Below the pieces are notes generated by a model. It saw only the letters and a list, made by a program, of their open reading frames with translations, was not told the origin of the DNA and did not search any database. A stretch of 64,000 bases of DNA from Dictyostelium discoideum. Lineage: Eukaryota. The stretch's first letter is position 1. Every line of letters begins with the position of its first letter. The DNA is taken from NCBI GenBank assembly GCA_000004695.1, contig CM000152.2:3040001-3104000 (forward strand). The letters run 5' to 3'. Shown here in pieces: positions 2 through 62,956 of this stretch. The translations under genes and the position numbers were made by a program.

Positions 2-1507
<1,506 letters not shown>

Positions 1508-1997: not shown

Positions 1998-4830
1998 ATG
2001 AAAGAAAAAATTAAATTAAGTTTATTAATTTTAACCTCAATTATTTTGGCTGTAGCCAATTCTCAAACACAACCAAGTAATTATCTTTAAAATTAATTTT
2101 ACATTTTAATTTAAATAAAAAAATATTAATATAAATAAAATTAATAATAATAATAGAAACTTTGGCAATGACAGCTACTGTTTATGACCAACATACATTT
2201 TACAACGACAATTTTGAGAACCAAGGACCGGCTTATTTAACGAAAAACATGGTTGTTAGTAAACTTGATAAAACTTTAAAGATTCCACAATTAGTGAGCT
2301 TAGATATTAATGTGGAAGGAAAAACTGGTGTAAATTATTTTGGAACAATGTATAATCCAAAACTCTTTAAATATTTTTTCTCAGAAAATACAAATGCTTC
2401 TCCAGATGATAAAAACTCTGGTAAAAACTTTCCATTATTGATGGATTTAATTCTTACATTAAATGAAACAAGTGGAGCTTATGAATTCTCTAAACAAGGT
2501 AATTTTTTAAAATTATTATTATTTCATTTTTTAAAAAAATAATAAAATGAAAAATAAAGTTATTTACCAACAGTAATATCCTATAAAATTAAAAAAAGAA
2601 TACTTTCCAATTAATGGTAAAGGATTTAATGATCCATCATACAAAGTACCACCAAAATATAAAGCAGATTCTCCAAATGTGGATTGGTTTAAAATGGCTG
2701 GCGGAGGATATTCTCAAAACAATTATAATTATTGTATTAAGGTAATTAATTAAATTAATAAACAATTAAAAAAATTTTAAATTATTAACTCTTGTTTTAT
2801 TTTGGGAAATGCATTAAAATAAAAAAATAAAAAAAATAAAAAAAAAAAGTTAAATTCCAAATTCACATATTTCAACAAAGGTGAAGTATTTAATTTTAGA
2901 GGTGATGATGATGTATGGGTATTTATAGATAATAGACTTGTTGTTGATTTAGGTGGTTTACATACAGCTGAAACCGCAAATATTAAATTGAAGGATATTA
3001 CAAATCCCCCATTACAAACTAATAAAATCTACGATTTAGATTTCTTTTATTGTGAAAGAAGAGCAACTGGATCATCAATTCAACTATCCACAACTCTCGA
3101 AATTTTCTGTGTAGATGATTATTGTGGTAAGTTTTTTTTTTAATTTTAGAATATTATAAATACATATATTAATTATATAATATAATGATGTGTATTTTAA
3201 CTTTTTTTTTTTAATATTTTTTTTTTTTTTTAAAAAAAATTATTTATTTAAGGTGTTTGTAATGGTGATGGTACAAGTTGTTGTACTTCATCAACTTGTG
3301 AAGATAATAATGCATGTACAATTGATAAGTAAGTGTTTTATAATAAATTGAAAACTTTAATTGGAAAAAATTATTAATATTTGATTATTATAAAGGTGTC
3401 CAAAACTTGGATCAGTTGCACCAGGAAAATTCACAAAGGATGACTGTGTATATTCAGAGGTCGTTTGCCCAATTGAATCTAACCAATGCTTAAGACCATA
3501 TTGTGATCCAAAAGAAGGTTGTAAAACTTCACCAGTTGAATGTGTAAATGGTAATATTGATAAATGTTTTGAACAATTCGGTAGTTGTGACTCTTCTCTA
3601 GGTTGTCAATATAATTATAAATGTAATGCCTATGGTAAATGTAATTTGGGATGTAGTGGTGGTCAATGTAAAGTTAAAACCTCAGAACAATGTTCAGAAG
3701 AATTTGGAAATGATCCATGTTACACTTACAGTTGTGACGTAGAACTTGGTTGTGTGAGAACTGAAAAATGTTCACAAGAAGATGCCAAACTATGTACCAT
3801 CAATACTTGCTTAAAAAATGTAACAAGAGAAGATGATAGATGCGAACTTGTAAGTATTCAAGAAGAATGTAATTGTTGCGCAGGTCATACAGTTGATCCT
3901 TGCCAATTGCCAGGTTGTGGTGAACCAGGTGAATGTAAACCAGTTGATAAAATCATTGATGATAATAATTTATGTACAATTGATAAATGTGAAAATGGTA
4001 CAATTACACATACTCCTGTAAAATGTGGTGGTTGTTCAATATGTGATTCGAAAACAGGTCAATGTGTTATAAATCCACCCATCTGTGATGATGATAATGT
4101 TTGCACAATTGATACATGTTCACTTGTTGAAAATCCAAATGGCTCCATCGATGGTGTATGTTCTAATAAAATTTTTGATTGTGCTTCAAATGATACTGAT
4201 TTATGTAATATTTGGACATGTGATGCAAATAATGGTGGTTGTCAATCGATAAAAAAGGTTTGTGATGATCCTTCTCCATGTCTTGTAAGTAAATGCGAAC
4301 CATCAACTGGTCAATGTGTGGACAGTCCAAGAACATGTGATCATGGTGGTGCTTTTTGTTTAATTTCAGAGTGTGATGAAAGACTTGGTTGTATCGTTTA
4401 CAATAGACAATGTGCATCTGATAATAGAAAATGTCAAGCTGGTGTTTGTGTTAATGGCACTAGCTCTGAGGAAGGTCATTGTACATCTGTAGACTATGAT
4501 CCATTACCATTTGGTTGTAATACGGCTGCTGTTGTTTCAACTGCTGTTATTGCTGGTGTTACTGTTGCTGCTGTTGTTGGTCTTGGTATTTTCCTTGTAA
4601 GTCTTTCACAAACTCTTTTATTTTATTTATTTATTTTTTTTTTTTTAAACATTGAATTGATTTTATACTAACATTAATTTATTATTTATCAACAGTATGG
4701 AGGTAAAAAAGGTTATGATTATTATCAAGATAATAAAAGTAAAGGAATGACTGGTGCAAATTCAAACCCATTATATAAGGAATCAGGTAATGCTGGGCAA
4801 AATCCATTATATAATGATAATAATTTATAA
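1998..4830 (+). CDS. Psi-like secreted/type-I membrane protein: signal peptide, PA14/fibro-slime domain, Dicty-CTDC Cys-rich repeats, one TM helix, short cytoplasmic tail. Seven exons: 1998-2076, 2157-2498, 2599-2741, 2851-3126, 3253-3328, 3396-4596, 4696-4830.
   Basis: Exon 1 (MKEKIKLSLLILTSIILAVANSQTQP) is a signal peptide. Exons 2-4 encode TVYDQH.FYN.NFE ... YFPINGKGFND ... GEVFNFRGDDDVWVFIDNRLVVDLGGLH ... DFFYCERR, the PA14/fibro-slime signature. Exons 5-6 encode many C..D.N.CT.D.C repeats and the TM helix AVVSTAVIAGVTVAAVVGLGIFL. The last exon encodes YGGKKGYDYYQDNKSKGMTGANSNPLYKESGNAGQNPLYNDNNL*. All junctions use GTAAGT/GTAATT donors and AG acceptors in consistent phase. The exon layout is identical to the paralog at 6316-9419. 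Confidence 0.8.
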
Positions 4831-5169: not shown

Positions 5170-5293
5170 GAAATTATAATATTATTTTATGTATAATAAT
5201 TTTATCCAAAATTGTTTTGGCCAATGCACAATCTCCACCAAGTAATTATCTTTCAATAAATTTTTAAATATTAAATAAACTAAATAATATTAA

Positions 5294-5337
<44 letters not shown>

Positions 5338-5500
5338 TAATAGAAAATTTGAATATGAGGGTTACTGTTTATGACCAACATTTCTTTTATAATAACAATT
5401 TTGAAACAGTAGGAGTTGCTTATGTGACTAAGGGCTTAACAATAACGATGAATATAATAATATAATTGATATTGTTATATTACAAAATCCATTATATAAC
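5170..5500 (+). pseudogene. Degenerate fragment of a psi-like PA14 gene: signal-peptide-like exon without an ATG, plus the start of the PA14 exon, truncated by a stop
   Basis: The sequence ...IILCIIILSKIVLANAQSPPSNYL has no in-frame ATG. After an intron-like AT stretch it continues ENLNMRVTVYDQHFFYNNNFETVGVAYVTKGLTITMNIII* and then AT-rich sequence with no further exons. It lies between the two intact paralogs in the same orientation. Confidence 0.5.
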
Positions 5501-6315: not shown

Positions 6316-6446
6316 ATGTTCATTCAAAGAACATTTTTAAAAGTTCTTACTCTTTTGAGTATAGTAACAGTTTTGGTCCATGGACAAACTCAACCAAAAG
6401 GTAAGCCATAAAAAAAAAATTAAATAAAAATAGAAAAATAAAAAAA

Positions 6447-6487
<41 letters not shown>

Positions 6488-6579
6488 AATAAATAAATAA
6501 ATTTAAATGAAGAAAATCTTTTAAATTTTTATATAAATAAATTTAATTTTTATAAATAATAAGAAATTAATAAAATTAA

Positions 6580-6616
<37 letters not shown>

Positions 6617-6956
6617 TAAAATTACATTGAAGGCCGTAATTTATGATCAACACAAGTTTTATAATCCAAATTTCCAACCAAAAAATGAGGGAGAATTTGT
6701 TTTAACTAAGGGAATTGTCAAATCAGATATTGATCAAGAAAAAAGAATTCCAGTTTTAAATAGTATGGATGCCAATGATTCTATAAATAAAAAGGCAAGA
6801 ATTAGTTGGCCAGATGGTTTTAAGTATTTTTTTGTAGATAACCAAGCTGGTGATTCAAAATCTGCCAAATCTGGTAAAAATCTTCCAATTCAAAGAGATA
6901 TCGAGTTAAATTGGAATGGAGAAGCATATGAATATAGTAATTCAAGTGAGTATTTG

Positions 6957-6996
<40 letters not shown>

Positions 6997-7046
6997 AAAT
7001 TTAATATTAAAATAGTTTCTAATTAAAAATTTTATTTTTATTTTTT

Positions 7047-7079
<33 letters not shown>

Positions 7080-7637
7080 ATTTGTGTAATTAAGATTACT
7101 TCCCAATTAACGGACAAGGTTTCAATGATGTAAGCTATCCAGTTCCAAGAGGTTATGTACCAATTTCTGGAGAATCCTGGACATCAATGTCAACTTCAAC
7201 TTCATTAAAGGGTAATAACTATAATTTTTGTTTAAAAGTAAGTTTTAGTTTTTATTTTATTTTATTTTTATAATTTTCCTCTCCACATATTAATATTTTT
7301 TATTATAATTATTTTTATTATTTTTAAAATAATTTCTTTTAAAATAGTTAAACTCTAAATTTACATACAACGGAAACGAAGTCTTTAAATTCACTGGTGA
7401 TGATGATGTATGGGTATATATTAATAATAAGTTGGTTGTTGATATTGGTGGTATCCATTCACAAGTAAGTGCTTCAGTAGATGTTACTAAACTTGGTCTC
7501 ACTGTAGGAACCATTTATAACTTTGATTTCTTTTATTGTGAAAGAAAAACAAGTGAGTCTAATATCAAAATTCAAACAACAATTGAAACTTATTGTGCCT
7601 ATGTTGATTACTGTGGTGGTAAGTTTTATTTTTATTT

Positions 7638-7687
<50 letters not shown>

Positions 7688-7867
7688 AAATTTATCATTT
7701 AAATTAACTTATTATTATTATTATCATTTGAAATTATTATAATTATTATATATAGTTTGTGAAGGAGATGGTTCAACATGTTGCAATCCAGCTACTACTT
7801 GTAATGATGGTAAAAGATGTACTAATGATTTGTAAGTATTTTATTTTTTTTTTTAAAAAAAAATTTC

Positions 7868-7903
<36 letters not shown>

Positions 7904-9419
7904 AATTTACCAATCAAATTTACTAATATTATAAAACTTAATAGTTGTCCAGATCCAAAATCCCCATTAGCTGGAAAAGATATTAGCAAATATTGTGACC
8001 ATATTCCAGTTAAAACTTGCTCAAGTAAAGATACATTATGTAAACAATATACTTGTAGTGATGATCTTAAAGGTGATATGTGTGTTATCAAAAATACTGT
8101 CACCTGCCCAGGCAATCAAACAAACTGTGAAGCCTCTGGTTATTGTGATGATAAATTTGGTTGTATTAATCCATCAAAATGTACAGATTACATTGGTCAA
8201 TGCTTTTCTGGTAAATGTGTAAATGGTGAATGTGCAAAGGTTACAGCAGACGATTGCGAAAAAATAATTGGAGGTGTATGTAGATCAGACTATGTTTGTG
8301 AACCAGGTCTCGGCTGCAAATCATCAGAGAGATGTAGACAAGGTAGTGATATTTGTGATCTTGTAACTTGTGATCCAAAAGCAACTGACGAATCAAAGAG
8401 ATGTATTACCACTGTTTTAACTGACGAAGAATGTAGATGTTGTGAATATGATACATTGAGATTCTGTGAACAAGCTGCATGTAGTAATAAAACCGGTCTT
8501 TGTCAACCAATTCCAAAGAATGTAGATGATGGTAATTTATGTACAATCGACGCCTGTAATGAAGATGAAAAAACCATCACCCACGTTCAAGTTACATGTG
8601 GTGGTTGTGAAACCTGTTCATACGCTACCGGTAAATGTGAACCAGATAGTTCACTTTGTAATGATAACAATATTTGTACCATTGATATTTGTGTCCATGA
8701 AGGTATTCTCGATGGTCTACCACAAGGTAATTGTTCAAATACTCCAGTTGATTGTGGTGCCAATGATGAAGATAAATGTAAAACTTGGTCTTGTGATCCA
8801 ACTAAAGGTGGCTGTCAATCAACCCCAGTCGTTTGTGAAGATAAAGGTAAATGTTTAGTTGGTACTTGTCAACCATCCACTGGTCAATGTGAATACTCTG
8901 ATAGAGTTTGTGATAATGGTGGTGCTTTCTGTGTTATTGGCCAATGTGATCAAAGACTTGGTTGTTTAGTTTTCGATAGAGTTTGTTCATCTGATAATAG
9001 TAGATGTGAAGAAGGTGTTTGTGTAAATGGTACTGAATCTGAAGAAGGTCATTGTAAATCTGTTAAATATGACCCATTACCATTCAATTGTAATACTGGT
9101 GCTGTTGTTTCAACTGCTGTTATTGCTGGTTCTACTGTCGCTGGTGCTGTTGCTCTTGGTATTTTCCTTGTAAGTTTTTTTTTTTTTTTTTTTTAATAAT
9201 AATTATACACACACACACAATTTGTATTAAAACTAATTTTTTTTTTTTTTCCAAAATTTATTTTATTCTTATAAATAGTATGGTGGTAAAAAAGGTTATG
9301 ACTATTGGAAAGACTCAAGAAATATTTCAATGGGCTCATCAAATAGTAATCCATTGTATGAAGAACAACAAACTGGAAGAGGTGTCAACCCAATGTATGA
9401 CGATCCAGCTGCTAATTAA
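6316..9419 (+). CDS. Second psi-like PA14 + CTDC-repeat + TM protein, tandem paralog of 1998-4830. Seven exons: 6316-6400, 6616-6945, 7095-7237, 7348-7618, 7756-7831, 7945-9169, 9279-9419.
   Basis: Signal peptide MFIQRTFLKVLTLLSIVTVLVHGQTQPK. PA14 motifs AVIYDQHKFYNPNF, YFPINGQGFND, GDDDVWVYINNKLVVDIGGIHSQ, DFFYCERK. Long C..D.N.CT.D.C repeat region. TM helix AVVSTAVIAGSTVAGAVALGIFL. Tail YGGKKGYDYWKDSRNISMGSSNSNPLYEEQQTGRGVNPMYDDPAAN*. Confidence 0.8.
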
Positions 9420-14318: not shown

Positions 14319-17300
14319 AAAAAAAAAAACAAAAAAAACAAAAAAAAAAAACCAAAAACCAAAAAACAAATACTAACTTTTTTAAAATTTTTCTTTTTAA
14401 ATTTTATTATTGTTTTTAAGTGCATGGTTAACACCAGATTCAGTAACAGATTTTTTAGAAAACCACCCACATAAGAATCAACCAAAGAGTAAACAATGGC
14501 AAAAAGCATATAATGCAGCAATCAAATATTTAAAAAATTCAGAGAGTGAACCAGATAGTGATTCTGATGGAGATTATTCTGGTTCGGATGATTCAAATAT
14601 AGAGAGCGCATCCTCAAGTAGTGAGTCTGAGAGTGAAAAAGTTAAAACGTCGAAAAAATCAGAGAAATCAACCAGTGGTAGTAGTAGTATTATTAATAAT
14701 AGTAGTAGTAGTAGTAAATCATCAGATTCCAAAAAAAAATCATCATCATCATCATCGTCATCGTCATCATCATTATCATCAAACTTAAAATCAGAATCTA
14801 AAAAATCAACATCCTCATTAAAATCAAAATCTAATGGTAGCTCCAAAGTTAAAGCATCAAAACCAGATAAAACTCCAGAACCTATTAAAACAGAGTCTTC
14901 ATCCACAAAATCTGAAGGAAAAACGGAAAAGGCTAAATTGAAAAAAGAAACAGTATCACCAACATTGTCCTCGTCATCATCATCGTCATCAAAAAAGAAA
15001 TCAAGTACCAACAGTAGTAATGGAAAAAGAAAAATTAAAAGCATCAGTAGTGATAGTGAAAGTAGTGACAGTGATAGCGATAGTTTAAGTGATAGTGATA
15101 GTATGAGTGATTCAGATTTTAGCAGTAGTGAAGATGAGGAAAAACATAAAAAACATAAGAGGTTAAAGAAATTGGTAGATCAACCACCAAAGAAAAAAGA
15201 AAAACTTAGTAATGGTGGCAGTAAAAAAGAAATAGCAAGTAAATCTTCCAAAGTAACCACAGCCATTACTACAACAATTGCAGAGACGCCACAACAATCA
15301 ATAAAGAAATCATCCACATCATCATCATCGTCATCATCATCGTCATCACCACCCCTAAGGTCACCAATTACAACCACAACTACAACAACCACAACTACAT
15401 TAATGTCACCACCAACTCAACATCAATCCAATCAAAATTCACTCAGTAGTAGTAATAAACTTTTATCAAAATTAACAAATACAAAGATTCCAATTGTTTC
15501 ATCCTCTTCAACAACTACTACATCAAATGGAAATGGTTTGGGTAATGGTGGTTCTATAATAGGTGTCATTGGAAATAGTATAACCAACAATGGTAGTAGT
15601 GGTAATAGTAATAGTAGTAGTAATAGTATTAATAGCAGTAGCATCACCAATAGTAATAGTACAAATATCATTGATTTTTCAATAGATGATAAACCTTATT
15701 ATAAAGATCCACCCATTTATTCGACAGCAGCACCAACAAAAACAGGTAAATTAGGATCGAACCGAATTTCATCAGAACCTTCACCTTGGAGTATTGATAC
15801 CTCTGACATTAGACAGCAAAGTTCACCAACGATTCAAGCACACAACATGAGTGCTACAACCATTGGAGGAACCAGTATCAATGGAACAACTAGCAGTATT
15901 TATGACTCCTATACCAGTAAATATGGAATGGGTATCAATCCTGATCCATACACTAGTTACACAAGCAATAGCAGCGCAACTCGATATGTCGATGATTATT
16001 ATGCATCCTCATTATTTAAAGATCCATTACTTTCATCCAGTAGCACAACAACAACATCAACCACAACTACACCATTACCAAAAACCTATTACCAAACTTA
16101 CAGTGTAATAGATGTACAAAAATCACCTTACTCTTCATATAAACCAACTTCATCAATTTCATCTTCAACAACATCAACTCCCATTTCACTTTCAACTACT
16201 ACAACCACTTCTTCAACATCATCATCATCGTCATCATCAACACAACCACCACATAATCAATCATCAACCTCTTTGTATAGCCCACACAACCACCATCTAC
16301 ACCACCACAGCCATCATGATATTTTAGATAGCAGAATTTCACCTCCAAAACAGCATCCTATTGATCCTTACTATGAAGATGATTACAGAGATAGAAGGTA
16401 TAGCAGACCGCCATTACCACATCAACAACAACAACAACAGCAACAACAGCAACAACAACAGCAACAACAACAACCAATTTCACCATACTCAAATAGAAAT
16501 GATTTAGATAGAAGAGATCATTACCATGATTCATCACTTTCCCCATCACCCTATAAATCAAGAGATCAATCCCTCCCACCAAGAAGAAGGGACGATGGGT
16601 ATTTACCACCTCCATCACAAACTCAAACCAATTCTTCATCAACATTACCTCAAAACAGAGATTTAAGAATAAATGATTATAATGACAGAGATTTTAGAGA
16701 CAGCCATCCAAGAGATACCAGAACTCCAATTAGAGATTTGAGAGATCGTCCACCCCCACCTTCATCATCCTCATCATCACCTGCACCACTTGGTGGAGGC
16801 TCAAATTATAGAGATCCATATTATGATGGTAGAGGTAGAGGTTTGAGAGGAGGACCACCACCATACAGAGATAATCGTGATAACATTAGACCACCAGTAG
16901 ATAGATATAGAGATAACAACCGAGGTGGAGGTGGTGATTGGGATAGAGACCGTGATTGGGACAGAGACAGAGATAGAATTGATCATAGAGATCGTGATTG
17001 GGATAGATTGGATGACCGTGGTAGAGATAGGGATTTTAGAGATCGTGACATCAGAGACAGAGATTTCAGGGACCGTGATAGAGATTTTAGAGATATTCGT
17101 GATAGAGACCTCTGGGAGAGAGATAGATTATTGGATCGTGAAAGAGACCTCCGTGATAGAGACCTCTGGGAAAGAGATAGAATGTTGGACAGAGACAGAG
17201 AAAGAGATAGACTAGACAGACCAATCGATCATGTAAGGGATAGAGATAGACTTTTAGATGGTCGTGATGGTAGACTATCAATTGATAGTAGAGATAGAAT

Positions 17301-17688
17301 GTTGGATAGAAATGATAGAATTATTGATAATGGTAGAGATAGAGGTGATAGAATTATTGATAATGGTAGGGATAGAATATATTCATCTCAACAACAACAG
17401 CAGCAACAGCAACAACAACAACAACAACCACTTCTCCTACTTCAACATCATCAACCACAATCAAGCATTTTAACATCCTCATCCTCTTCATCTTCAACAA
17501 CTACAACCACTACAACAACAACTGTACCATCATCATCATCGTCATCCTCTTCATCTAATTTATTACCAACAACAACTTCAATAACAATAGCTTCAAACGA
17601 TATTTTATCATCGTCAAATCTTTTAAATGCTCCAATTACTCCAAGTAAAAGAGAAAGTAAATGGGATAAAGAATCAACTAATGGGTCC

Positions 17689-17719
<31 letters not shown>

Positions 17720-17739
17720 ATAATAATAATAATAATAAC

Positions 17740-17780
<41 letters not shown>

Positions 17781-17796
17781 TAATAATAATAATAAT

Positions 17797-17827
<31 letters not shown>

Positions 17828-17877
17828 GTACATCATCAGTTGGCACTACCTCAAAATCAATTACCCCAACAAAATAA
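14033..17877 (+). CDS. PWWP-domain protein, about 1200 aa. It is Ser-rich and low-complexity with an extended Arg-Asp (RD) dipeptide repeat. At least two exons: 14033..~14231 and ~14421 or 14438..17877.
   Basis: The N-terminus MKEDKKSTNGEYVAGTNFRYGQVVYGRMPGYPQWPARVHDPS...ILLHFFSSND is a PWWP motif in a PWWP-type beta-barrel context. An A-rich intron follows. The downstream frame AWLTPDSVTDFLENHPHK... runs to 17877. It contains poly-Ser, poly-Thr, poly-Gln and poly-Asn tracts and RDRDWDRDRDRIDHRDRDWDRLDDRGRDRDFRDRD... Confidence 0.7.
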
Positions 17878-19960: not shown

Positions 19961-20009
<49 letters not shown>

Positions 20010-20636
20010 TTGGGGGGTGTAGAGTGTGTTTAGTGACGTAATATATTTGTTGAGGTTTGATGGTAGTGCTACTGTGTGTAGTGGTGAGTTCCAGTGTTTG
20101 CTAAATCTTTCGAGTTGTAGGGAGATGATGTTTTTGAATTTTTTTATTTGTTCGTTGTTGGTTGCTTTTTTTTCTTGTCTGATTAGTTTGTATATGTTGT
20201 TTTTTGTTCTTTCCCAGGCTGCTGTTTGAGTTTTCTTTAGTTCGTGTACTAGTAGTTGTTTTCTTAAGTTTTTGAGTGTTATTCCTTCGTGGATTTTCTT
20301 GTTTCTTCTTCTCCAGATGTTTTCGCAAATAATGGCTATGGCGTTGGCTGTTAATGGAATGTCTAGTCTGTTGAAGATTTCTATTCCCCAATTGATTCTG
20401 GATCCTCCAGATTTTTCTTGAATGTAGTTGATGCACTCTTGAGTTTCTTTAATGTGTGATTTGCATTTGAAGAAGATGTGTTCTGAGGTTTCCTGTTCGT
20501 TACACCAGATGCAAGGGGCGTTGTGGATCTTTGGAAGAGCTTTAAGAGCTAATCTCCATAGGAGGTCTCTTCTTTTCAAGTTGACTATTTTCCTGATTTA
20601 TTTTAAAATGGACAGGAGCAAAAAAAACGAAGTTTC
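19799..20636 (-). mobile_element. 5'-truncated non-LTR (LINE-like, TRE-type) retrotransposon fragment. Contains the ORF2 C-terminus (20004-20579, minus strand) and a poly(A) tail of about 43 nt (plus 19963-20005), followed by 164 bp of unassigned sequence (19799-19962).
   Basis: The minus-strand ORF ...LALKALPKIHNAPCIWCNEQETSEHIFFKCKSHIKE... carries the classic LINE ORF2 C-terminal C-x2-C-x3-ET-x2-H-[IL]FF-x-C zinc-knuckle. Its TAA stop runs directly into a poly(A) tract of about 43 nt, seen as poly(T) on the plus strand. The element lies immediately upstream of tRNA-Asn with its 5' end facing the tRNA, as expected for dictyostelid tRNA-gene-targeted retroelements. The whole 838-bp block is flanked by the 42-bp direct repeat. 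Confidence 0.6.
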
Positions 20637-20678
20637 ATCAAAAATGCCTGGATGGCTCAGTAGGCAGAGCGAGCGGCT
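20637..20678 (+). repeat. Copy 2 of the 42-bp direct repeat. It continues into the intact tRNA-Asn gene.
   Basis: atcaaaaat + GCCTGGATGGCTCAGTAGGCAGAGCGAGCGGCT. See 19757-19798. Confidence 0.8.
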
Positions 20679-20718
20679 GTTAACCGCTAGGTCCATGGTT
20701 CGATCCCATGTCTAGGCG
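20646..20718 (+). tRNA. tRNA-Asn (anticodon GUU)
   Basis: The 73-nt cloverleaf folds by hand. Acceptor stem GCCTGGA / TCTAGGC, with one G-U pair. D arm GCTC-AGTAGGCA-GAGC with A-box TGGCTCAGTAGG. Anticodon stem AGCGG/CCGCT and loop CTGTTAA, giving anticodon GTT. T arm CATGG-TTCGATC-CCATG with B-box GGTTCGATCC. Discriminator G. Confidence 0.9.
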
Positions 20719-20750
20719 AAAATTTTGAAGCTCGAAAAAAATAAATCACA

Positions 20751-27275: not shown

Positions 27276-28277
27276 TTATAAAATTGATTCAAATAATTTA
27301 ATTGCTTCTTTTGGAGCTGTTTTTTTAATTACAATTGAAAAATGACAATGATTATTAGTTTCATAACCGTTATTTGTTAAAATGATTGGCCAATTTTTTA
27401 ATTTTGATTCTAATAAAAGGTCATTTGGTGGAAGGAATCTAACTTGACCTTTAATGACTTCACAAAGGTCAAAACATTTATCAAATGATTTCATATTGAA
27501 TTTTTCGCACATAACTCTAATTATGGATTGGCAATTATCTGATGCAGTTACTTTAACAGATTTATAAGAATCATTTCTAAAATAAATTTTAATAACTTCA
27601 CTACCAGAACCGGTTAAACCTTTAATTGGACTTTCTACATATGGCGATGATTGCAATTGTACCATTTTTGAATTTGCATTTGGTTGTTGTGATATGAAAT
27701 ATTGATTGGAACTATTTTTTGATTCTTCATGGTGATGTTGTAAAATTGATTTTATAGCATGTTGATATTCTTCTTTTTTTTGATCTTGCTCTTTTTTAAC
27801 TTCTAATAGGGTAGCTTCGGAATTTGATATTCTTCCTTCTGCAACGTCAACCATTTCTTTTTGGAACCAAGATTGTGCTCTATCCAATGAAGTGAATCCA
27901 TTATTATCTTTTAAATTAATATTTGCACCTTGTCTAATTAACCAAAGTGCTAAAATATCGTATCTACCAGTTACCAATGAATGAAGTGGTGTCCAACCTC
28001 TATCGTCTTGAACATTAATATCACATCCTCTAGATACTAATAGTTCCAATACTTGTTTATGTCCTCTTGAGGATGCAATATGAATTGGACATGTACCTTT
28101 TTCATACTCTCTCATATTAATATCAACACCACAATCAATCATTTCTCTAACTTTTTTAACATCATTATTTGAAACTCCTTTAAATAAATCATAATCATAT
28201 TTTTCAATTCTATAATTACTTTTGATTTTATTAGTTGATGATGATGTCATTGGACTATAACTTGAATTACTAATCAT
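27276..28277 (-). CDS. Ankyrin-repeat protein with a C-terminal Ras-association/ubiquitin-like domain. Single exon, 333 aa.
   Basis: Three ANK repeats (GTCPIHIASSRGHKQVLELLVSRGCDINVQDDRGWTPLHSLV..., NLKDNNGFTSLDRA). The C-terminal block EVIKIYFRNDSYKSVKVTASDNCQSIIRVMCEKFNM...FDLCEV has RA/UBL-like character. Confidence 0.75.
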   Translation of the reverse strand: MISNSSYSPMTSSSTNKIKSNYRIEKYDYDLFKGVSNNDVKKVREMIDCGVDINMREYEKGTCPIHIASSRGHKQVLELLVSRGCDINVQDDRGWTPLHSLVTGRYDILALWLIRQGANINLKDNNGFTSLDRAQSWFQKEMVDVAEGRISNSEATLLEVKKEQDQKKEEYQHAIKSILQHHHEESKNSSNQYFISQQPNANSKMVQLQSSPYVESPIKGLTGSGSEVIKIYFRNDSYKSVKVTASDNCQSIIRVMCEKFNMKSFDKCFDLCEVIKGQVRFLPPNDLLLESKLKNWPIILTNNGYETNNHCHFSIVIKKTAPKEAIKLFESIL

Positions 28278-29886: not shown

Positions 29887-31171
29887 AATAATTAAATTGA
29901 AAAAAAAAAAAAAAAAAGATGATGGTAAATTATTTGCATATTGTTATCCAACAAATAAAAAACATGAAGATGTTGTATTGAAATCATATGAGATGTTTGT
30001 GCATTTGAATGCATTAAATCCATTAGCATTTCAAAGTTTAAGAAGAATGGAAGTTGAAGTTGTACAAATGGCAATTAAAATGTTAAATGGTGGAAATGAA
30101 GCTAGAGGTACAATGACTACAGGTGGCACAGAGAGTATATTGATGGCAATGAAAGCCTATAGAGATAGAGGATATGAAGTCGATGGTATTAGAGAACCAG
30201 AGGTAGTTTTACCAATTTCAGCACATCCAGCATTTGAAAAGGCTGCAAAATATTTTGGAATTAAAACTAGATATGTTCAATCTGTGGATCCAGTGAGTGA
30301 TTTAGTGGATTTAAAAGAATATGAATCAAAAATCAATAGAAATACCATACTATTAGTTGCATCAGCTCCACAATATCCTCATGGATTAATGGATCCAATC
30401 GAGTCAATTGGTAAATTGGCAGAGAAATATAGAAAACCATTTCATGTTGATGCTTGTATTGGTGGTTTCTTTTTACCATGGTTAGAGAAATTAGGTTATC
30501 CAATTCCATGTAAATTTGATTTTCGTGTTCCATCAGTCACATCGATTAGTGCTGATATTCACAAATATGGCTATGCAACAAAGGGTTCATCAGTTTTGTT
30601 ATTCTCTTCTAATGAATATCGTAAATATCAATTCATTGCCTATACTCAATGGCCAGGTGGCTTATTCGTCTCTCCATCAATGTTGGGAACTCGTTCAGGT
30701 GGCAATATAGCAGCTGCTTGGTCATCTTTAGTCTCGATGGGTGAGAACGGATTCATGGAATATGTTGATAAAATTATGAAAACCTCAATTGCAATTCAAA
30801 AAGGTATCGTCTCATTACCATTGGGTAACGTTGAAATTATTGGTTCAAATCCTGTAATGTCAATCATTTCATTGAGATCTAAAGTTGTCAATATTCATGC
30901 GGTTGCAGACTCTATGGAAAAACATTTCTCTTGGAAACTTGAAAGACAACATAGACCAAATAGTATTCATATGACTTTAACACCATCTCATATTGGTATT
31001 GAAAAGGTTTTCTTGGAAAATTTGAAATTCTCAATTCAAGAAGTTATGGCTGATCCAAATTTAAGTAAAAAAGGTTCTGCTGCTATGTATAATGGTATCA
31101 ATAATATACCTTTAACTGCAATAGCTGATGATTTCTTAATTGAATTTTTATCAAAAACTTATTCAACTTAA
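29484..31171 (+). CDS. sglA: Sphingosine-1-phosphate lyase (PLP-dependent, fold type I, group II decarboxylase family). Two exons: 29484-29826 and 29919-31171.
   Basis: N-terminal membrane anchor FITFSGLAIVAYAY. SPL-family motifs GGNEARGTMTTGGTESILMAMKAYRD, HVDACIGGF, SADIHKYGYATKGSSVLL (the PLP lysine) and WPGGLFVSPSMLGTRSGG. A phase-1 intron joins ...DINPG|DDGKLFAYCYP. The symbol is the dictyostelid S1P-lyase name, assigned from memory. Confidence 0.8.
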
Positions 31172-41324: not shown

Positions 41325-42617
41325 ATGAATAAAAATATTAAAGATATGAAAATTGTAATTTGTGGAGGCGGAATGAGTGGCTTGGGATTGGCAAGAGTAC
41401 TTCAATTAAAAGGTTGTAAAAATGTTAAAGTTTATGAGAGATCAACTCATAAATATTCAAGATTACAAGGTTCGTCATTAGATTTACATGCAAAACTTGG
41501 TCAAAAATTAATTATAGCAGCAGGTTTACAAGAACAATTTGCAGCCTTTTCAAGACCAGATGGAGAATGTTTTTCATTTTGTGATAAAAGTGGAAATATT
41601 AATGTCAGAAAACCATATTTAAAGATTGCTAGTAAAAGACCAGAAATTGATAGAGGTGATTTACGTGATATCCTTATGGATTCATTGTTACCAGATACTA
41701 TCGAATGGGATTATCATTTCAAATCATTGAAACAAATCGAAAATGATCAAATTGAATTAACATTTACAAATAACGATGGTACAATTGTTAGAGATGCCGT
41801 CATTGCAGATTTGGTTATTGGATGTGATGGTGTTCATTCAAAAGTTAGAAAATATGTTACTCTTGATCAATTTAAACCAGAATATATGGGAATTACAATG
41901 ATTGAAGGTGAAATTACTGATGCAAAGAATTCATGTCCTGAAATTTATAATTTAGTTAATCAAGGTTTAATGTTTGTTATGGAAGATGGAATTGTAATGT
42001 TAGCTCAACAAAAAACAGATGGAAATATTGTATTTAGTTTTGCTCAAAAAGTTGAAAAAGATTGGATAAATAATCAAGGTTTTAATTTATCAGTTAATTC
42101 ATCATCATCTGATGATGATGTTAAAAACTACTTAAAAAATAAATTAATTCCATCATGGTCACCAATATTCCATAGATTAATTGATTCATCAATAACACCA
42201 TTCAAACCAAGAGTTTTATATCGTGCACCAATTAATCAAGAGTGGAAATCTCAATCAAATATTACAATAATCGGGGATGCAGCCCATTCAATTTCTCCAT
42301 TTGCTGGATTAGGTTGTAACATTGCATTATATGATTCTTTTGAATTGGCAAATATTTTAACAAAAGATATCGATTGTACAACTCAAAAACCATTATTGGA
42401 AAAAATTCAAATCTTTGAAAAAAGTATGTTAAATAGATGGAGAACTGCAGCAAAAGAAACAATGGAAAATGAAAATTCTGTTTTCTTACCAAATGGTATA
42501 GATGCTTTAAAAAAAAGAATTGGTGGAATTTATTATTATTTTAATTGTATTTTATCAGTAAGCAAAGTTGTGAATTATATTAATTATTTTACTGATTTAA
42601 TTTTATTAACTAAATAA
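41325..42617 (+). CDS. FAD-dependent aromatic-ring monooxygenase (salicylate/kynurenine hydroxylase-like). Single exon, 430 aa.
   Basis: N-terminal dinucleotide-binding motif KIVICGGGMSGLGLA, DG fingerprint CDGVHSKVR, and the C-terminal FAD motif GDAAHSISPFAGLGCNIALYDSFELA. Confidence 0.8.
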   Translation: MNKNIKDMKIVICGGGMSGLGLARVLQLKGCKNVKVYERSTHKYSRLQGSSLDLHAKLGQKLIIAAGLQEQFAAFSRPDGECFSFCDKSGNINVRKPYLKIASKRPEIDRGDLRDILMDSLLPDTIEWDYHFKSLKQIENDQIELTFTNNDGTIVRDAVIADLVIGCDGVHSKVRKYVTLDQFKPEYMGITMIEGEITDAKNSCPEIYNLVNQGLMFVMEDGIVMLAQQKTDGNIVFSFAQKVEKDWINNQGFNLSVNSSSSDDDVKNYLKNKLIPSWSPIFHRLIDSSITPFKPRVLYRAPINQEWKSQSNITIIGDAAHSISPFAGLGCNIALYDSFELANILTKDIDCTTQKPLLEKIQIFEKSMLNRWRTAAKETMENENSVFLPNGIDALKKRIGGIYYYFNCILSVSKVVNYINYFTDLILLTK

Positions 42618-47741: not shown

Positions 47742-48055
47742 TTAGTTATCGCTATTATTAATATTTTGAGGAGTTCCATTGTTATTTGAAGTTGATGGTG
47801 AATTTGGAGAATTTGAGGGTTTTGGTGAAATGATTAAAGGGGCTGAACGTTGAGCACCTGACATACTAATGTTGCTTGGATTATTACCTCTATTTACAGA
47901 ATTTGGTGAGAGTGGATATTGTGGGTTTGGTGGATTAGAATTTGTTTGTACATCATCCATGTCATCAGAAATAATTACAGAACTTTGTTGATTGGTTGGG
48001 TTTGATGTATTCATATTATTATTATTATTACTATTATTATTATTATTATTATTTA

Positions 48056-48107
<52 letters not shown>

Positions 48108-51100
48108 TGATAAAATTGGTGAAGATGTTGAAGAATTAAAATTTGTTGGTTGATTGTTATTACTATTATTATTATTATTATTACTATTATTATTGTTATT
48201 ATTATTATAATCATTATTATTGTTATTAATATTATTATTAGATTCACTATCACTAGTTGATAAAGTTGTTGTTGTACTAGTAGTTGTAGTTGTAGTTGTT
48301 ATTGAGGTATTTTCAATAGTTTGAGATTGTTGTGGAGATTGTTGTTGTTGTGCTTGTTGAGCTTGTTGTTGTTGTTGTTGAAGTTGTTTTTGTCTTTCTA
48401 ATTGTTTATTACTTAAAGAATTTGTAATATTATTATTAATATTATTCATATTATTATTAATAAAGTTAATTGTATTTAAATTATTTTTCTTTCCTCTTTT
48501 ATTTGGATTACTGATGAAATTATTGATATTGAATTTTGGAATTGCAGTTTCTTGAGTTTCACTGAAATGACCATAGGAAATATTAGCAAGATGAATTTCC
48601 TCATCGGTATCTTCGATGAGTGCTTTAAGATGAGAATTAACACAACGTTGTAATGAATTTGTTTTTTCGATACCATAACCACCTTCCAATACAGAGATGA
48701 TTCTACCTTTACAATATTTGAAAGCGACAGTTTTAATCATTTTAGTAATGACGAAATAATCCTCTTCATTTAATTTCAAACCATTGGTTGGATCATCTTT
48801 ATGGCCATCGAAACCAGCTGAAAGGAAGATTAATTGTGGTTTGTAAGCTTCAAGTCTTGGAATGATTTTATTCATCCATTGTTGAAGGAAAACTGCGGAA
48901 CCTGTATTACGTTTCAAGCCAATATTTAAAATGTTACCATCGAATTGACCCGACACCTCATCGATATCACCAACATCTTGACCGGTACCAGGATAAAAGT
49001 AACGTTTTTCATCACATACATGAATTGAAATGAAGAGGAAATTGTCATCACCACTTAGGATCTCTTGAGTTCCATTACCATGATGAACATCGAAATCCAC
49101 CACAGCAATTCTACTATAACCGGCGGTCAATGAAGCATACTTGGCACCAATGGCAACGTTATTGATTAAACAATAGCCTTGAGATGGCGCATCACTTGTT
49201 CTACCATAACGACCAGCATGATGACCAGGTGGACGAATGGCACAAAAAGCACGAGTATAACCAGAACGACTAACTGAATCAACGGCGGCACAAACTGAAC
49301 CACTTGCTCTCAATGCGGCTTTAATGGAACGATGTGAAACAAAGGTATCGTAAATGTTATCATCATCACCCTCGAAATCTTTATGAGAGGCAACAGTAAC
49401 CATAGCACCACTTTTATCACTCTCCAAATGAGTTTCAAACTCTGAATTCTCTGGTGGTAAACTAGTTTCCAACTTTTTAATATAGTTTGCATCGTGGACG
49501 GCCATAACATAACGCATATCGACCTCTGGTGGATTGTCAAAGATATCAACCAATGGATTGCTTGCAAACTCGTTTATACAACTGACAGCGACTTGAATAC
49601 GATCAGGTTTCTCCAAATGAAAGTTTGGAACTTTATGTTGCATGCAAATCTTGTGATAGATTGCAATGGTTTTAAATTTATTCTTTATATCAACTGTGGT
49701 TGGAACGATTACAGGTTGACCATCCTCGCCCATTACTGTGGTTGTAGTGTTTGGAATTGCATTATCCAAAGCATTTGGTGGATGTGGTATTTGTGTCTCC
49801 AATTTATTTTGAAGTTGTGATAGTTTATTATTGATTAACTTTTCACATTCACCAACTCTTGATTCATAAAAGTAATCATGGATCCAATAGATTGATTCAA
49901 CCATTGTAATCAATAACTTGAGAGCGTAAATCTCATTCTCTAGGGTGGCTTGTTGAGATTTTGTCTCCTTTTCTTTGTCAGAGATACCATTTTTAATTAA
50001 TAACATATCGACTTTTAGCTCACTTGATTTCTTTTGAAGAGTATCACGAATTGATTCGTGAGCTGCAATTGCACCACGTACTTTACTTAATGAATCTAAT
50101 AGCTCTACCTCTTGATATTTAAATTTATGAATTTCATCCAAGTTTGCTTTGATTTGATGTTCAATTTGTTCAATCTCTGTGCTAACTTTATTACTTCTAA
50201 GACTTTCCTCCATGAGATTATCCTCGAGATCATGTTGATAATCGGCGATAGCACGTAAAGCAACTTCAATTGAATAGATTAAAGCATTTCTGGTTGAACA
50301 ACATTCTTTACCAATTAAACCTGCAGTTTCATGATTTTCAAATACCATTGTGATTGCTCTTTCCAATGGTACATTACGAGCGTTGGTTGTCATATTTTCA
50401 AGGGCACCCTCTTCCAATGATTTCAACTCTGAATACATCTCAACCACTGATTGTGATGATAATAAATTTCTCTTTATTAAATTTGATAATTCTTCAATCA
50501 TTCTCCAAACTAAACCATAATCTGATGCCCAACGTACAGTTTTTATTCTCATCATTAAATCAACAAAGTTATCAATACGTTCTTTAATTTCATCTGGTGG
50601 ATTTTGAGATAATGTTGAAAAGAATTTAACTGCTGTAAAAGTTTGATCAACGAAATTATCAATTGGATTCAATGGTTCTCTATTTGGTGATAAAACTGAT
50701 TCAATTAAATTATTAAAATTACCATTATTTTGTTGTTGATGTTGATGTTGTTGTTGTAATGCTTTCAATTGTTGAAGTTGAGCTTGTTGTTGTGATAAAC
50801 GAGCTTGTTGATGAGTTTGTTGTAATTGTTGTTGTTGTTGTACCATTAATGTATTTGGTGATGGTGGTGTTGCTGAATAACCCTGTTGTTCAACCACAAC
50901 CGTTGTATTTTTAATAATACCTCCACCAGCAGCACCACTACTACCAACCATCACTGAATTACCAATAATTGATGTTGGTGATGGTGGTGCACTATCTTCA
51001 TCATTTCTCTTTTTAGTATACTTTCTAGTTTCATAAATATCTGATGATGCATTAATTTTCTTTCTTAATCTTTTTTGATTTTGTTGATTATTTGGTGAAC

Positions 51101-53065
51101 CTGATGGATCAAATCCACTATTATTATTATTATTATTTGAATTATTATTATTATTATTATTTGAATTATTTGAATTAAATTGTGATGATCTTTTTTCATT
51201 TGGTGAAGTTTGTTGTTGTTGTTGTTGTTGTAAAAATTGAGCTTGAGCCATATCAAGTTCTGGACCTCTACGGAATTTTCTACTAATTGAGGTTAAACCT
51301 GGATTTAATTGTTCTTTAACCCAACGAGTTCTTTCTTTTTCTTTTGCTTTTGTACGTACGAATTGACAAACCCAACAAATCCATTTATTACCATTTGGAT
51401 GATTATTATGTTTCATGGCTGCAATTTCAACACAATCATTACAAAAACCAAATGCACAACCATTGTTACCACAATGATGTAAATCTTTTTTATCACCACA
51501 AATGCCACAAACTTTATCTTTTACTCCACTCGATTCATCATTAACGAAATCACCTCTTCTTAATGCTTCTGAAATTCTCACTTCACTCTTTATTGCATGA
51601 GTTTTACATGTTGGAATTAAACATGGTCTTAATATTTTTAATGATCTATCTGCTTTAACACATCCAACAAACCAACATGGTCTAATCTATAAATTTTTAA
51701 AATTAAAAAAAATAATAAAAATAATAAATAATTAGTAAAAATTATTTATTTTTTTTATTTTTTTCATTTTTTTTTTTTTTTTTAAAAACTTACATCTAAA
51801 TGATTTGGTACACTTTTTTTACTTGTTTTATATTTTGTTTTCTTTTTTGGTTGACCCATGTCTTCTTCTTCTTCTTCAAATTCTTCACCAAATTCTTCTT
51901 CACCCAAAGAATTATTTTGATTATTTTGATTATTTTGGTTATTTTGATTATTTTGATTAATTTGATTAATTTGATTATTTTGATTATTTGGATCTGATGT
52001 TGTTGTTGATGAACCTTGAGTAGCCTGAATATATTGTTGTAATTGAATTCTTTTTCTTTCTTCTGATCTTGATCCATTTGTCTTTGGTCTACCTCTAGCT
52101 GGCCTATTATTATTATTGTTATTATCATTATTACTATTATTATTATTATTATTATTATTAATATTATTATTATTATTATTGTTATTATTGTTTTGATTTA
52201 AATTTTGATTATTATTATTACTATTGTTAGTGGTGGTAGTTGTAGTAGTGGTATTATTGTTATTATTGTTATTATTATTTTGATTTTGATTTGATTGGTT
52301 TTCATCTTGTGGTTTATCATTTGTAGACATTATTGAATCATCATCTTCACCAACACCACCATCACTTTCTTCAGATAACATTAGATCTTTTTCTTCATCT
52401 GATGTTAATCTTGGTCTTTTATTGGTTTTTAATGCTGATTGAGTGTTTGGTGTATTATTTGTTGATGTTGAAATACGTTTTGGTACTTTTCCATCCGGTG
52501 TAAATATAGTTGGTGACTCTGGTGTAGTTTGTGATAAATGTGTATTTGTTGATTGTTGAACTTTTGATGGTCTCTGTAATTTTTTAAAAGTTTATAAAAA
52601 AAATAAAAAAAATAATAAAAATTAAGAAATTAGTATTTACACATTAGAATTATTATTTAAAAAAGATGTACTTACACCTCTTCTTTTACCACCAGCTGAA
52701 TTAGGATTTTGATTTTGTCTTCCATCAGCATCCTCATCATCATCTTCCATTTCATCTTCATCTTCTTCGGCACTATCAGATAATTCATGTTCTTCAAAGT
52801 TTATATCATCTTCTGATCCACTATCTTCAAGTGTAACTTGTTGTTCTTCTGTAACTTGTGAGTTGTTGTTGTTGTTGTTTTTATTATTATTATTATCACT
52901 ATTGTTATCGTTATCATTGGTGTTATTATTGTTGGTAGGTGAGGTTGTATTTTCGGTATTATTTTTGTTGTCATCATTATTATTATTATTATTATCGGTA
53001 TTGCTTTCGTTTGTTATGGTGGTTTTGGTGTCTTCATCACCTTCTATTATGTTATTGGTTGACAT
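47742..53065 (-). CDS. Class II histone deacetylase of about 1700 aa with an N-terminal acidic/N-rich region, an AT-hook, a Cys-rich PHD-like finger and a C-terminal deacetylase domain. Three exons: 53065-52676, 52573-51794, 51686-47742.
   Basis: Deacetylase motifs GFCLINNVAIGAKYA, VVDFDVHHGNGTQE, FISIHV and VLEGGYG. AT-hook RPARGRPKTNG in exon 2. Cys-rich finger CGICGDKKDLHHCGNNGCAFGFCNDCV...WICWVCQ at the start of exon 3. Minus-strand donors GGT|GTAAGT and GAT|GTAAGT with matching AG acceptors. Confidence 0.8.
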
Positions 53066-55672: not shown

Positions 55673-57226
55673 ATGAATTTAAAAAACTTAGAAACATGTA
55701 AAGGATTAATTAAAGGATCTTATATTGATCAAGCAATTCAAGGAACATCACAATTCAATAAACTTTTAGAAACATTATTAATACATGTAGGTTTTTTAAA
55801 TTCATTTTTTAAAAAAATATAAAATAAAAAAAAAAAAAAAAAAGTAAATCTAATTTTTTTTTATATACACACATATTAACATCCAAAAAAAAAAAAAAAG
55901 AAAAAATTACCAAATATAGGATATAATGATAAAATTATTGAATTAATTTTAAATGAAATATCATTGATGGATTCAAATAATTTTATAGAGAATATTGGAG
56001 TTGGTGAAAGAGAGGGAAGAATATATAGTGGGTTAGTTGAAAAAAGACATTATGGATTTGCACATGGTATTGGTAGAAGTGGTGATATTACAGAGCAACA
56101 ACCAAAAGCAGCAGGATCAAGTTTAATTCAAAAATTAACACATTCATTAGTATTGGATGCAATGAAATTGGCAGGACTAGAACAATCATCATTATCAAAT
56201 TGTTTACTATTACCAATGGCAACTGGCATGACATTAGCATTAACAATGTTAACATTAAAATCAATCAATGCAAATAATAAAAGATATGTACTATGGCCAA
56301 GAATTGATCAAAAGTCATGTTTAAAATCAATAATAACAGCAGGACTAATACCAATTGTTATACCAAATCAATTGGATGGTGATATGATTAGAACTGATTT
56401 AGTGGCTATTGAAGACAAAATTAAGGAATTAGGTGTGGATAATATATTATGTGTTTTTAGTACAACTAGTTGTTTCGCACCAAGAGTACCAGATAAGATT
56501 ATTGAAATTTCAGAAATTTGTAAAAGATATAACATTGGTCATATCATTAATAATGCATATGGTTTACAATGTTCAAAGATACTACATAACATATCGCAAG
56601 CTTGTAAATTGGGTAGAGTGGATGCATTCATTCAAAGTACTGATAAAAATTTTATGGTACCAGTTGGTGGAGCAATCATTAGTGGTCCAAATTCCGAATT
56701 TATAGATCAAATCTCTCGTAATTATCCAGGTAGAGCAAATTCTTCACCAATTTTAGATGTTTTCATAACACTCTTATCAATGGGTAAACAAGGTTGGTTA
56801 AATTTATTAAAAGAAAGAAAAGAATTATTAATTTATTTTAATGAACAACTTTCAAAATTTGCATTAGAAAATAATGAAAAACTTTTAAATACAATTAATG
56901 AAAATAAAATTAGTTTTGCTTTAACTTTATCATCAAACAATTTTAATAATAATGAAGAAATCATCTCTAATAATAATAATAATAATAATAATACTTTTTC
57001 AATGATTGGATCAAAATTATTTTCAAGATCTTGTTCAGGTTCTAGAGTAATTGATTTAAAATCAAACAAAAAACTTTTAATTGGTGGTTTAGAATTTAAT
57101 AATTATGGTTCACATATTGATAATTATTCAACATCTTATTTAACTGTTGCTTGTGCAATTGGTATCACAAAATTAGAAATTGATACATTTATACAAAGAT
57201 TATCAAAATTATTTAATAAAAAATAA
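55673..57226 (+). CDS. O-phosphoseryl-tRNA(Sec) selenium transferase (SepSecS, selenocysteine synthase; PLP-dependent). Two exons: 55673-55786 and 55901-57226.
   Basis: [64 protein letters not shown]...RIDQKSCLKSIITAG...STTSCFAPRVPD...NNAYGLQ...FIQSTDKNFMVPVGGAII...YPGRANSSP is near-collinear with human SEPSECS ([52 protein letters not shown]...). The phase-0 intron has a GTAGGT donor and an AG acceptor at 55899-55900. Confidence 0.85.
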
Positions 57227-62883: not shown

Positions 62884-62956
62884 CACCCATTGTGGGTCTC
62901 GATCCCACGACCTGCAGCTTAGAAGGCTGCCGCAATTCCAACTTTGCTAAACGGGC
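62884..62956 (-). tRNA. tRNA-Arg (anticodon UCU), possibly a variant or weakly functional copy
   Basis: Reverse complement GCCCGTTTAGCAAAGTTGGAATTGCGGCAGCCTTCTAAGCTGCAGGTCGTGGGATCGAGACCCACAATGGGTG folds as a cloverleaf. D arm GCAA/TTGC. Anticodon stem GCAGC/GCTGC with loop CTTCTAA, giving anticodon TCT. T arm GTGGG-ATCGAGA-CCCAC, with A at position 54. The acceptor stem has two G-U pairs, including 1-72. Confidence 0.7.

Follow-up and report, generated by a model that had tools for sequence, protein, structure and literature searches.

The psi-family genes psiO and psiP lie in the 64,000-nucleotide stretch of Dictyostelium discoideum DNA analysed here (the window, in whose coordinates all positions are given), and both end in an exon that encodes a short tail with two NPxY motifs. 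This tail is an ancient amoebozoan cassette with the layout GGKKGYDx[WY], 13–14 variable residues, NP[LM]Y, 8 residues, NPx[YF] and a short C-terminus, and its pattern of conservation indicates that it is under purifying selection across the psi homologues. The explanation that we favour as a whole, with moderate confidence, is that it would act as a receptor tail of the integrin β/Sib type, providing talin-type docking together with a site for a second adaptor.

The psiO and psiP genes

The psiO gene, rebuilt from GT..AG introns with the reading frame open throughout, comprises seven exons spanning positions 1998–4830 of the + strand (1998–2076, 2157–2498, 2599–2741, 2850–3126, 3253–3328, 3396–4596 and 4696–4830, stop codon included) and encodes 750 residues. 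The seven exons of psiP, also rebuilt from GT..AG introns, span 6316–9419 on the same strand (6316–6400, 6616–6945, 7095–7237, 7348–7618, 7756–7831, 7945–9169 and 9279–9419, stop codon included) and encode 756 residues. The products are identical in sequence to the D. discoideum AX4 proteins PsiO (UniProt Q54VS4) and PsiP (UniProt Q54VS2), respectively. A PA14 domain was matched by Pfam with E = 4e-8 in PsiO and 1e-13 in PsiP, and the cysteine repeats of Dicty_CTDC were matched at 25.7 and 21.2 bits, respectively, below the cut-off of 27. With a PA14 domain followed by cysteine-rich Dicty_CTDC repeats, and with their identity to named genes, both proteins belong to the Psi (PA14) family, and the suggestion of two psi-like PA14 paralogs made in a preliminary description of this DNA is confirmed by the exact UniProt matches and the Pfam assignment. 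The two proteins share 62% identity over the transmembrane (TM) helix and tail and 47.5% over the ectodomain.

Between psiO and psiP, at 5175–5438 (+), there is a stub of a third psi paralogue, comprising the signal peptide and the first part of exon 2, with 54.5% identity (E = 2e-19) to residues 3–56 of the sequence P0004. P0004 (locus tag ACTFIW_002521) is a full-length gene of 740 residues in another D. discoideum strain, where its locus tag is flanked by the tags of the psiO and psiP orthologues (ACTFIW_002520 and ACTFIW_002522). Since the gene is full-length at this place in one strain and a stub in the other, the copy number of the psi array varies among strains.

Membrane topology and the tail exon

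In Kyte-Doolittle profiles only two hydrophobic segments are found in each protein, the N-terminal signal peptide and one TM helix. The helix of PsiO (AAVVSTAVIAGVTVAAVVGLGIFL, residues 683–706, encoded at 4525–4596 (+)) contains three Gly, and 12 of its 24 residues are small; that of PsiP (GAVVSTAVIAGSTVAGAVALGIFL, residues 687–710, encoded at 9098–9169 (+)) contains four Gly. Gly, Ala, Ser and Thr together make up at least half of either helix. The signal peptide and the TM helix are separated by about 660 residues with 64 Cys and 5–7 N-glycosylation sequons, a KK pair lies directly past the helix, and the remaining tail of 44–46 residues contains no Cys. By every sequence criterion PsiO and PsiP are thus type I membrane proteins, and because of this topology the tail is assigned to the cytoplasm, in agreement with what had been supposed before.

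The small-residue-rich TM helix noted in the preliminary description does lie right before the tail, and in both genes it ends the preceding exon. A phase-0 intron follows in each, at 4597–4695 (+) in psiO (intron 6), where it falls exactly at the boundary between TM helix and cytoplasm, one residue ahead of GGKK, and at the matching position, 9170–9278 (+), in psiP. The seventh and last exon then encodes the tail by direct translation, with 44 residues plus stop at 4696–4830 (+) in psiO (YGGKKGYDYYQDNKSKGMTGANSNPLYKESGNAGQNPLYNDNNL) and 46 residues plus stop at 9279–9419 (+) in psiP (YGGKKGYDYWKDSRNISMGSSNSNPLYEEQQTGRGVNPMYDDPAAN). This phase-0 intron is shared with psiK, and it is missing in the examined homologues of D. 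purpureum (P0010) and Cavenderia fasciculata (P0032). The separate tail exon is therefore specific to a lineage, and the idea that it represents an ancient shuffling unit was discarded because of the absence of the intron from these two homologues. Family-wide conservation of an exon-7 tail, another point raised earlier, accordingly holds for the tail motif, which all TM-anchored homologues recovered possess, but not for its encoding by an exon of its own.

The twin-NPxY motifs and their conservation

The two tails share the layout YGGKKGYDY[YW], 13 residues, NPLY, 8 or 9 residues, NP[LM]Y. In psiO the membrane-proximal GGKKGYD, which is near-invariant across the family, is encoded at 4699–4719 (+), the proximal NPLY (residues 730–733) at 4765–4776 (+) and the distal NPLY (residues 742–745), eight residues past the proximal motif, at 4801–4812 (+). 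The corresponding elements of the psiP translation are GGKKGYD at 9282–9302 (+), the proximal NPLY (residues 734–737) at 9348–9359 (+) and, nine residues further on, the distal NPMY (residues 747–750) at 9387–9398 (+). Translation of the two exons thus bears out the two NPxY motifs that had been read in the tails of both paralogs. Two earlier distances are corrected: the spacer between the motifs, given as 8–10 residues, is 8 in PsiO and 9 in PsiP, and the stretch from YGGKKGYDY to SNPLY, previously put at about 20 residues, is 13.

With PsiO as query, psi homologues were recovered from several species of Dictyostelium and from Polysphondylium violaceum, Heterostelium album, Acytostelium subglobosum, C. 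fasciculata and Tieghemostelium lacteum, as well as transcriptome and environmental sequences. All recovered homologues with a C-terminal TM helix end in ...GGKKGYDxW...NPLY...NPLY..., and the check on family members that the preliminary description had proposed comes out in favour of the motif: the first NPxY is kept in every TM-anchored homologue recovered and the second in nearly all, with F, H or A replacing its aromatic residue in the others. The cassette is present in seven dictyostelid genera (Dictyostelium, Polysphondylium, Heterostelium, Acytostelium, Cavenderia, Tieghemostelium and Synstelium), in Protostelium nocturnum (P0309) and in hundreds of environmental sequences, and the named taxa that bear it are all Amoebozoa. 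Members that have no TM helix, such as PsiA (P0045), which is homologous to PsiO across the N-terminal half (E = 2e-50), lack the tail altogether.

A profile of the TM helix and tail was searched exhaustively with HMMER against 1.84 billion cluster representatives (one per 50%-identity cluster) and matched 718 proteins at E ≤ 1e-3, of which 244 reached E ≤ 1e-10. The spacing of the elements is narrowly constrained in the 220 tails compared: the proximal NPxY starts 21–22 residues past the first Gly of GGKK, and the gap to the distal one is 8 residues long in most of them (188), 24 tails having 9 residues and another 8 tails having 7. The proximal motif reads NP[LM]Y, its Tyr being found in 218 of the 220; the aromatic position of the distal motif is looser (Y in 157, F in 48, H in 10 and A in 5), and usually only 1–8 residues follow. 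In column statistics for 169 distinct tails, N and P do not vary, and the KK pair and GYD are conserved. Counted from the first Tyr, position −9 is hydrophobic, −6 is A or V and +7 is Gly.

One homologue has the psi-type TM helix and tail in an internal position, at residues 645–703 of a C. fasciculata protein of 1506 residues (P0231, XP_004361653) annotated as 'glycoside hydrolase family 63'. This is probably a psi-like gene and a glucosidase gene fused in one gene model.

In a genome as AT-rich as this one, with about 22% GC by base composition in the window and abundant Asn codons, NPxY could in principle arise as an accident of composition. Only 0.007 and 0.005 NPxY are expected per tail from the protein compositions of PsiO and PsiP, respectively, and a six-frame translation of the 64-kb window (128,000 positions) contains nine NPxY in total, four of which sit in these two tails. 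No other twin NPxY and no other G[KR][KR]G[YFW][DE] was found in the same six-frame translation. The invariance of N and P in the 169 distinct tails extends to GC-richer species such as C. fasciculata. These expectations, the concentration of the window's NPxY in the two tails and the conservation in the 220 tails together exclude a chance origin, to which we give practically no credence and which we regard as already refuted.

The same cassette on VWA ectodomains

The longer proteins matched by the TM and tail profile fall into many with PA14 and Dicty_CTDC and a second group in which VWA and Dicty_CTDC precede the same TM helix and tail. Carriers of the second type, of about 730–790 residues, include P0251, P0272, P0275, P0280, P0297, P0309, P0312 and P0314, and the match of such proteins to the psi tail profile is strong (E of 1e-14 to 1e-17 for, among others, P0251, P0275, P0297, P0309, P0312 and P0314). 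They have the homologous TM helix and tail, with GGKKGYD, NPLY, 8 residues and NPLY, and differ from the Psi proteins in that VWA replaces PA14. The cassette is therefore modular, being joined to either PA14 or VWA ectodomains. Most of the VWA carriers other than P0309 come from environmental contigs of about 2.3 kb, each filled by one open reading frame (ORF), which look like metatranscriptome contigs.

The VWA domain of these carriers resembles the types found in collagen VI, the anthrax toxin receptor and integrin α-I, and not β-I. For this reason we do not call them integrins, and their candidacy as true integrin β homologues was dropped, the VWA domain being of a generic or α-I type. The combination of VWA, Dicty_CTDC and a twin-NPxY tail was also observed outside Dictyostelia, as an architecture resembling that of the Sib proteins.

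Comparison with integrin β tails

When the TM and tail profile was compared with all PDB sequences, the five best matches were all integrin β sequences (β-1 twice, β-7, a β-2 tail peptide and a β-1D tail peptide), with E between 0.034 and 0.18. Five β-3 entries and a second β-7 peptide were found further down the list, the integrin matches, peptides consisting of the tail only among them, having E of 0.03–0.6, and no NPxY tail of LDLR, LRP or APP was listed. The alignment to β-1 covers the TM helix and the whole tail up to the C-terminus; its only gap falls inside the helix, with none from the membrane-proximal region on. In Pfam, Integrin_b_cyt (PF08725) was the top match of the PsiO tail with E = 0.028, at 14.6 bits compared with a gathering score of 23.4 bits, and it was the top match in 9 of 16 tails, with a best E of 8e-5. 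An hhalign comparison of 41 tails with six human β tails gave 84.7% probability and P = 6.7e-6 over 22 columns, which correspond to the two NPxY motifs and their spacer. The spacer is 8 residues in human β-1, -2, -3, -6 and -7, and the same integrin-type separation is found in PsiO and in 188 of the 220 tails, PsiP having 9. These three independent comparisons agree, each being weak and below family thresholds, and the integrin-β-like label given to the tails in the preliminary description is upheld by them, and by the spacer length, for the twin-NPxY segment.

The parallels with integrin β subunits extend to the type I topology, a tail of about 45 residues, a small-residue-rich TM helix, a proximal NPxY followed at 8 residues by a distal NPx[YF]/NxxY, and a profile similarity that is reciprocal. 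The proximal motif is the stricter one in both; in integrin β, too, it is the distal NPxY that varies. Integrin β differs in having a VWA-like β-I domain with MIDAS, hybrid and PSI domains, an EGF stalk, an HDR[RK]E motif that forms a salt bridge with the α subunit, and a Trp at −8. Pfam scans of the PsiO and PsiP ectodomains gave PA14 and Dicty_CTDC only, with no β-I, hybrid or PSI domain, and we know of no α-subunit partner for Psi proteins. The integrin-like arrangement of the motifs is real, and shared ancestry with the integrin β tail may be considered a possibility.

A peptide of 56 residues from a Longimicrobium metagenome-assembled genome (P0352), with four NPLY and one NPLD, matched the tail profile with E = 2.4e-6 and has a precomputed Pfam match to Integrin_b_cyt. 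It was rejected as independent support because it is merely an NPLY-repeat peptide.

Comparison with Sib proteins and with secreted or shed factors

The Sib proteins of Dictyostelium (SibA–E) have type I topology, with VWA in the ectodomain, a TM helix rich in Gly and, in the cytosol, a conserved domain containing two NPxY motifs (PMC9197732, PMC9453864). All five bind talin A through the cytosolic domain, and in SibA this binding requires the proximal NPxY (PMC9197732, PMC9453864, PMC12686525). [quoted passage not shown] PsiO and PsiP resemble the Sib proteins, as these are described, in organism, in type I topology and in the conserved short tail that bears two NPxY motifs, and perhaps in a TM helix rich in Gly, and the Psi tails fit the Sib description at the level of motifs. 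They differ in the ectodomain, which in Sib consists of bacterial-type repeats and VWA instead of PA14 (no VWA match was obtained in PsiO or PsiP with Pfam), and in the TM domain, with five Gly in Sib and three or four in Psi. Sib proteins were not returned by a word-indexed search with the TM and tail profile (8000 candidates scored, 70 short environmental fragments of tails, with full-length psi proteins missed as well) or with a tail-only profile (62 candidates); low-complexity words from the TM helix may have swamped the former.

Within the psi family, PsiA, which is described as a soluble prespore-inducing factor, and DicA1/PsiF, presumably a secreted factor of the family, share PA14 and the cysteine-rich repeats with PsiO, and PsiA differs in having neither TM helix nor tail. 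A further candidate, DPF (DDB_G0289949), has been described as a shed single-pass protein whose TM and cytoplasmic part was suggested to contribute to a cell-autonomous role in adhesion. It was rejected as a carrier of the cassette, its tail (RRHRFSSVTMKLRTWNSKRRSKSKSYNLKNF) being unrelated.

Proposed function of the tail and alternative explanations

PsiO and PsiP are type I surface receptors composed of a lectin-like PA14 domain, a cysteine-rich Dicty_CTDC stalk, the small-residue TM helix and the tail of 44–46 residues, and we propose that the cassette in this tail would work as the tail of an integrin β or Sib protein does. The proximal NPxY would form the docking turn for a FERM-F3 or PTB-type domain, most likely that of talin A or B, and in this way cortical actin would be tied to the receptor. 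Another FERM protein or a sorting adaptor would use the distal NPx[YF], which would so set the residence time at the surface, and the Gly/Ala/Ser-rich TM helix may make surface delivery partly dependent on TM9/Phg1 proteins, as for SibA. Binding of talin or of other FERM or PTB domains and endocytic sorting by the Psi tails, as put forward in the preliminary description, are predicted. A wider version, in which the cassette would be an ancient cytoskeleton-coupling tail that shares its ancestry with integrin β and was swapped between VWA and PA14 ectodomains, making Psi a larger family of talin-coupled receptors, is held only tentatively.

Several observations weigh against this proposal. PsiO falls below the Integrin_b_cyt gathering score, the likeness to integrin β is confined to about 22 columns of short motifs, and the match of the NPLY-repeat peptide P0352 to Integrin_b_cyt means that motif content alone can drive integrin-tail scores. 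The membrane-proximal HDR[RK]E motif of integrins is absent from PsiO and PsiP, with GGKKGYD in its place, and the 169 distinct tails have no Trp at −8 and a hydrophobic residue at −9 instead. The Sib tails with which we compare are known here from published descriptions, the psi family members that have been studied are reportedly secreted signalling factors and not adhesion receptors, and no binding, localisation or phenotype data for PsiO or PsiP were found in the open literature.

The main rival holds the tail to be chiefly a trafficking signal, in which NPxY and possibly GYDx[WY], as a YxxΦ-like motif, would be read by endocytic or recycling adaptors such as AP-2 or SNX17-like FERM proteins, so that the receptor is internalised or recycled and there would be no mechanical link to actin. 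NPxY is a classical endocytic signal, and GYD is near-invariant and followed by an aromatic residue at +3. However, signals of the LDLR type have the form FxNPxY, with an aromatic residue two positions ahead of the Asn (−5 from the Tyr) and a single motif; like the related signal of APP they share NPxY with the Psi tail and differ from it in having one motif and an aromatic residue where Psi is polar. The 169 tails fail this pattern, with Q in 48, N in 41, S in 21 and A in 15 at that position. The tail profile draws integrin β tails from the PDB and not LDLR, LRP or APP, and a strict separation of two motifs by 8 residues is not typical of simple endocytic signals. Recognition of YxxΦ by AP-2 calls for a bulky aliphatic residue or Phe at +3 and a distance of at least about seven residues from the membrane; in the conserved GYDx[W/Y/L/V] most tails have W or Y at the Φ position, and only about six residues separate the Tyr from the TM domain, which would make for poor ligands of AP-2 μ2. 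We therefore consider trafficking as the principal role unlikely, while noting that it is compatible with talin coupling and that the two are not exclusive. It is improbable, in our estimate, that the two tyrosines are instead phosphorylation-dependent docking sites for SH2 proteins such as STATs, with Psi acting as a receptor for glycan or cell-density cues. The tyrosines are conserved in the 220 tails, and PsiA and DicA1 link the psi family to signalling in quorum sensing and prespore induction. Dictyostelium has 13 SH2-domain proteins (PMC2906285), and its tyrosines are phosphorylated by tyrosine-kinase-like enzymes (PMC9197732). The second Tyr is, however, often Phe (48 of 220) and otherwise His or Ala, a freedom of exchange that is incompatible with an obligatory phosphotyrosine, and since N and P are as invariant as Y the motif is better understood as a β-turn ligand of the PTB/FERM type than as an SH2 site. 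The occurrence of the cassette in Protostelium and many environmental sequences also speaks against docking of this kind. The secretion of PsiA homologues, which have no TM helix, would fit a further alternative in which the TM helix and tail would do no more than anchor a precursor, its ectodomain being released as a soluble Psi factor, and the tail would be kept only for processing or exit from the endoplasmic reticulum. Such an anchor has no need of two invariant NPxY at a fixed spacing across Amoebozoa and on two classes of ectodomain, and the tail of the shed protein DPF is unrelated to the cassette; this alternative is very improbable.

Other features of the window

A tRNA-Asn(gtt) gene is located at 20645–20719 (+) and a tRNA-Arg(tct) gene at 62884–62956 (−). 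An ORF of 191 residues at 20004–20579 (−), with a CxxC...H...C knuckle and no Pfam match, starts about 65 bp upstream of tRNA-Asn(gtt) and presumably resembles a remnant of a TRE5-type retroelement targeted to tRNA genes. Further genes (27276–60367) were identified by Pfam scans of long ORFs and encode a protein with Ank and RA domains (27276–28277, −), two PLP-dependent decarboxylase-like ORFs (29897–31171, +, and 57322–58533, −), an FAD monooxygenase (41325–42617, +), a class II-type histone deacetylase (47742–51581, −), the selenocysteine synthase SepSecS (55964–57226, +) and an Ependymin_amoebozoa protein (59615–60367, −). The ORFs at 1046–1507 (+) and 14410–17877 (+) contain very long runs of Asn, Ser or Gln, as is typical of low-complexity coding sequence in Dictyostelium; the latter, of 1155 residues, additionally carries a repeat region rich in RD/RDR.

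Implications for the psi family

To our knowledge, Dictyostelium has talin, paxillin and vinculin-like proteins and no integrins. In two reviews (PMC9197732, PMC9453864) the Sib proteins are the only Dictyostelium receptors for which an integrin-β-like, talin-binding tail is described, and in the open-access literature we found no mention of psiO, psiP, the KKGYD motif or NPxY in psi proteins. What is new here is the extension of the amoebozoan integrin-β/Sib-like tail type to the psi family, as a widespread cassette common to PA14 and VWA ectodomains. SibA is needed for tension across talin A, and sibA-null cells still assemble adhesion spots in which talin A is present without tension (PMC12686525), so that other receptors must recruit it. 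The many TM-anchored psi members in every dictyostelid group are concrete candidates for such Sib-independent recruitment. If the wider, tentatively held version is true, Psi proteins could be what recruits talin A in these cells, and Dictyostelium would have, besides Sib, another and more numerous set of lectin-type receptors that are coupled to talin and act in adhesion or phagocytosis. The twin-NPxY cassette, as a defined module of 45 residues, also bears on the pre-animal origin of the link between integrin tail and talin. The psi family, so far associated only with secreted factors for differentiation and quorum sensing, would be recast as one that includes possible lectin-type receptors for adhesion and uptake.

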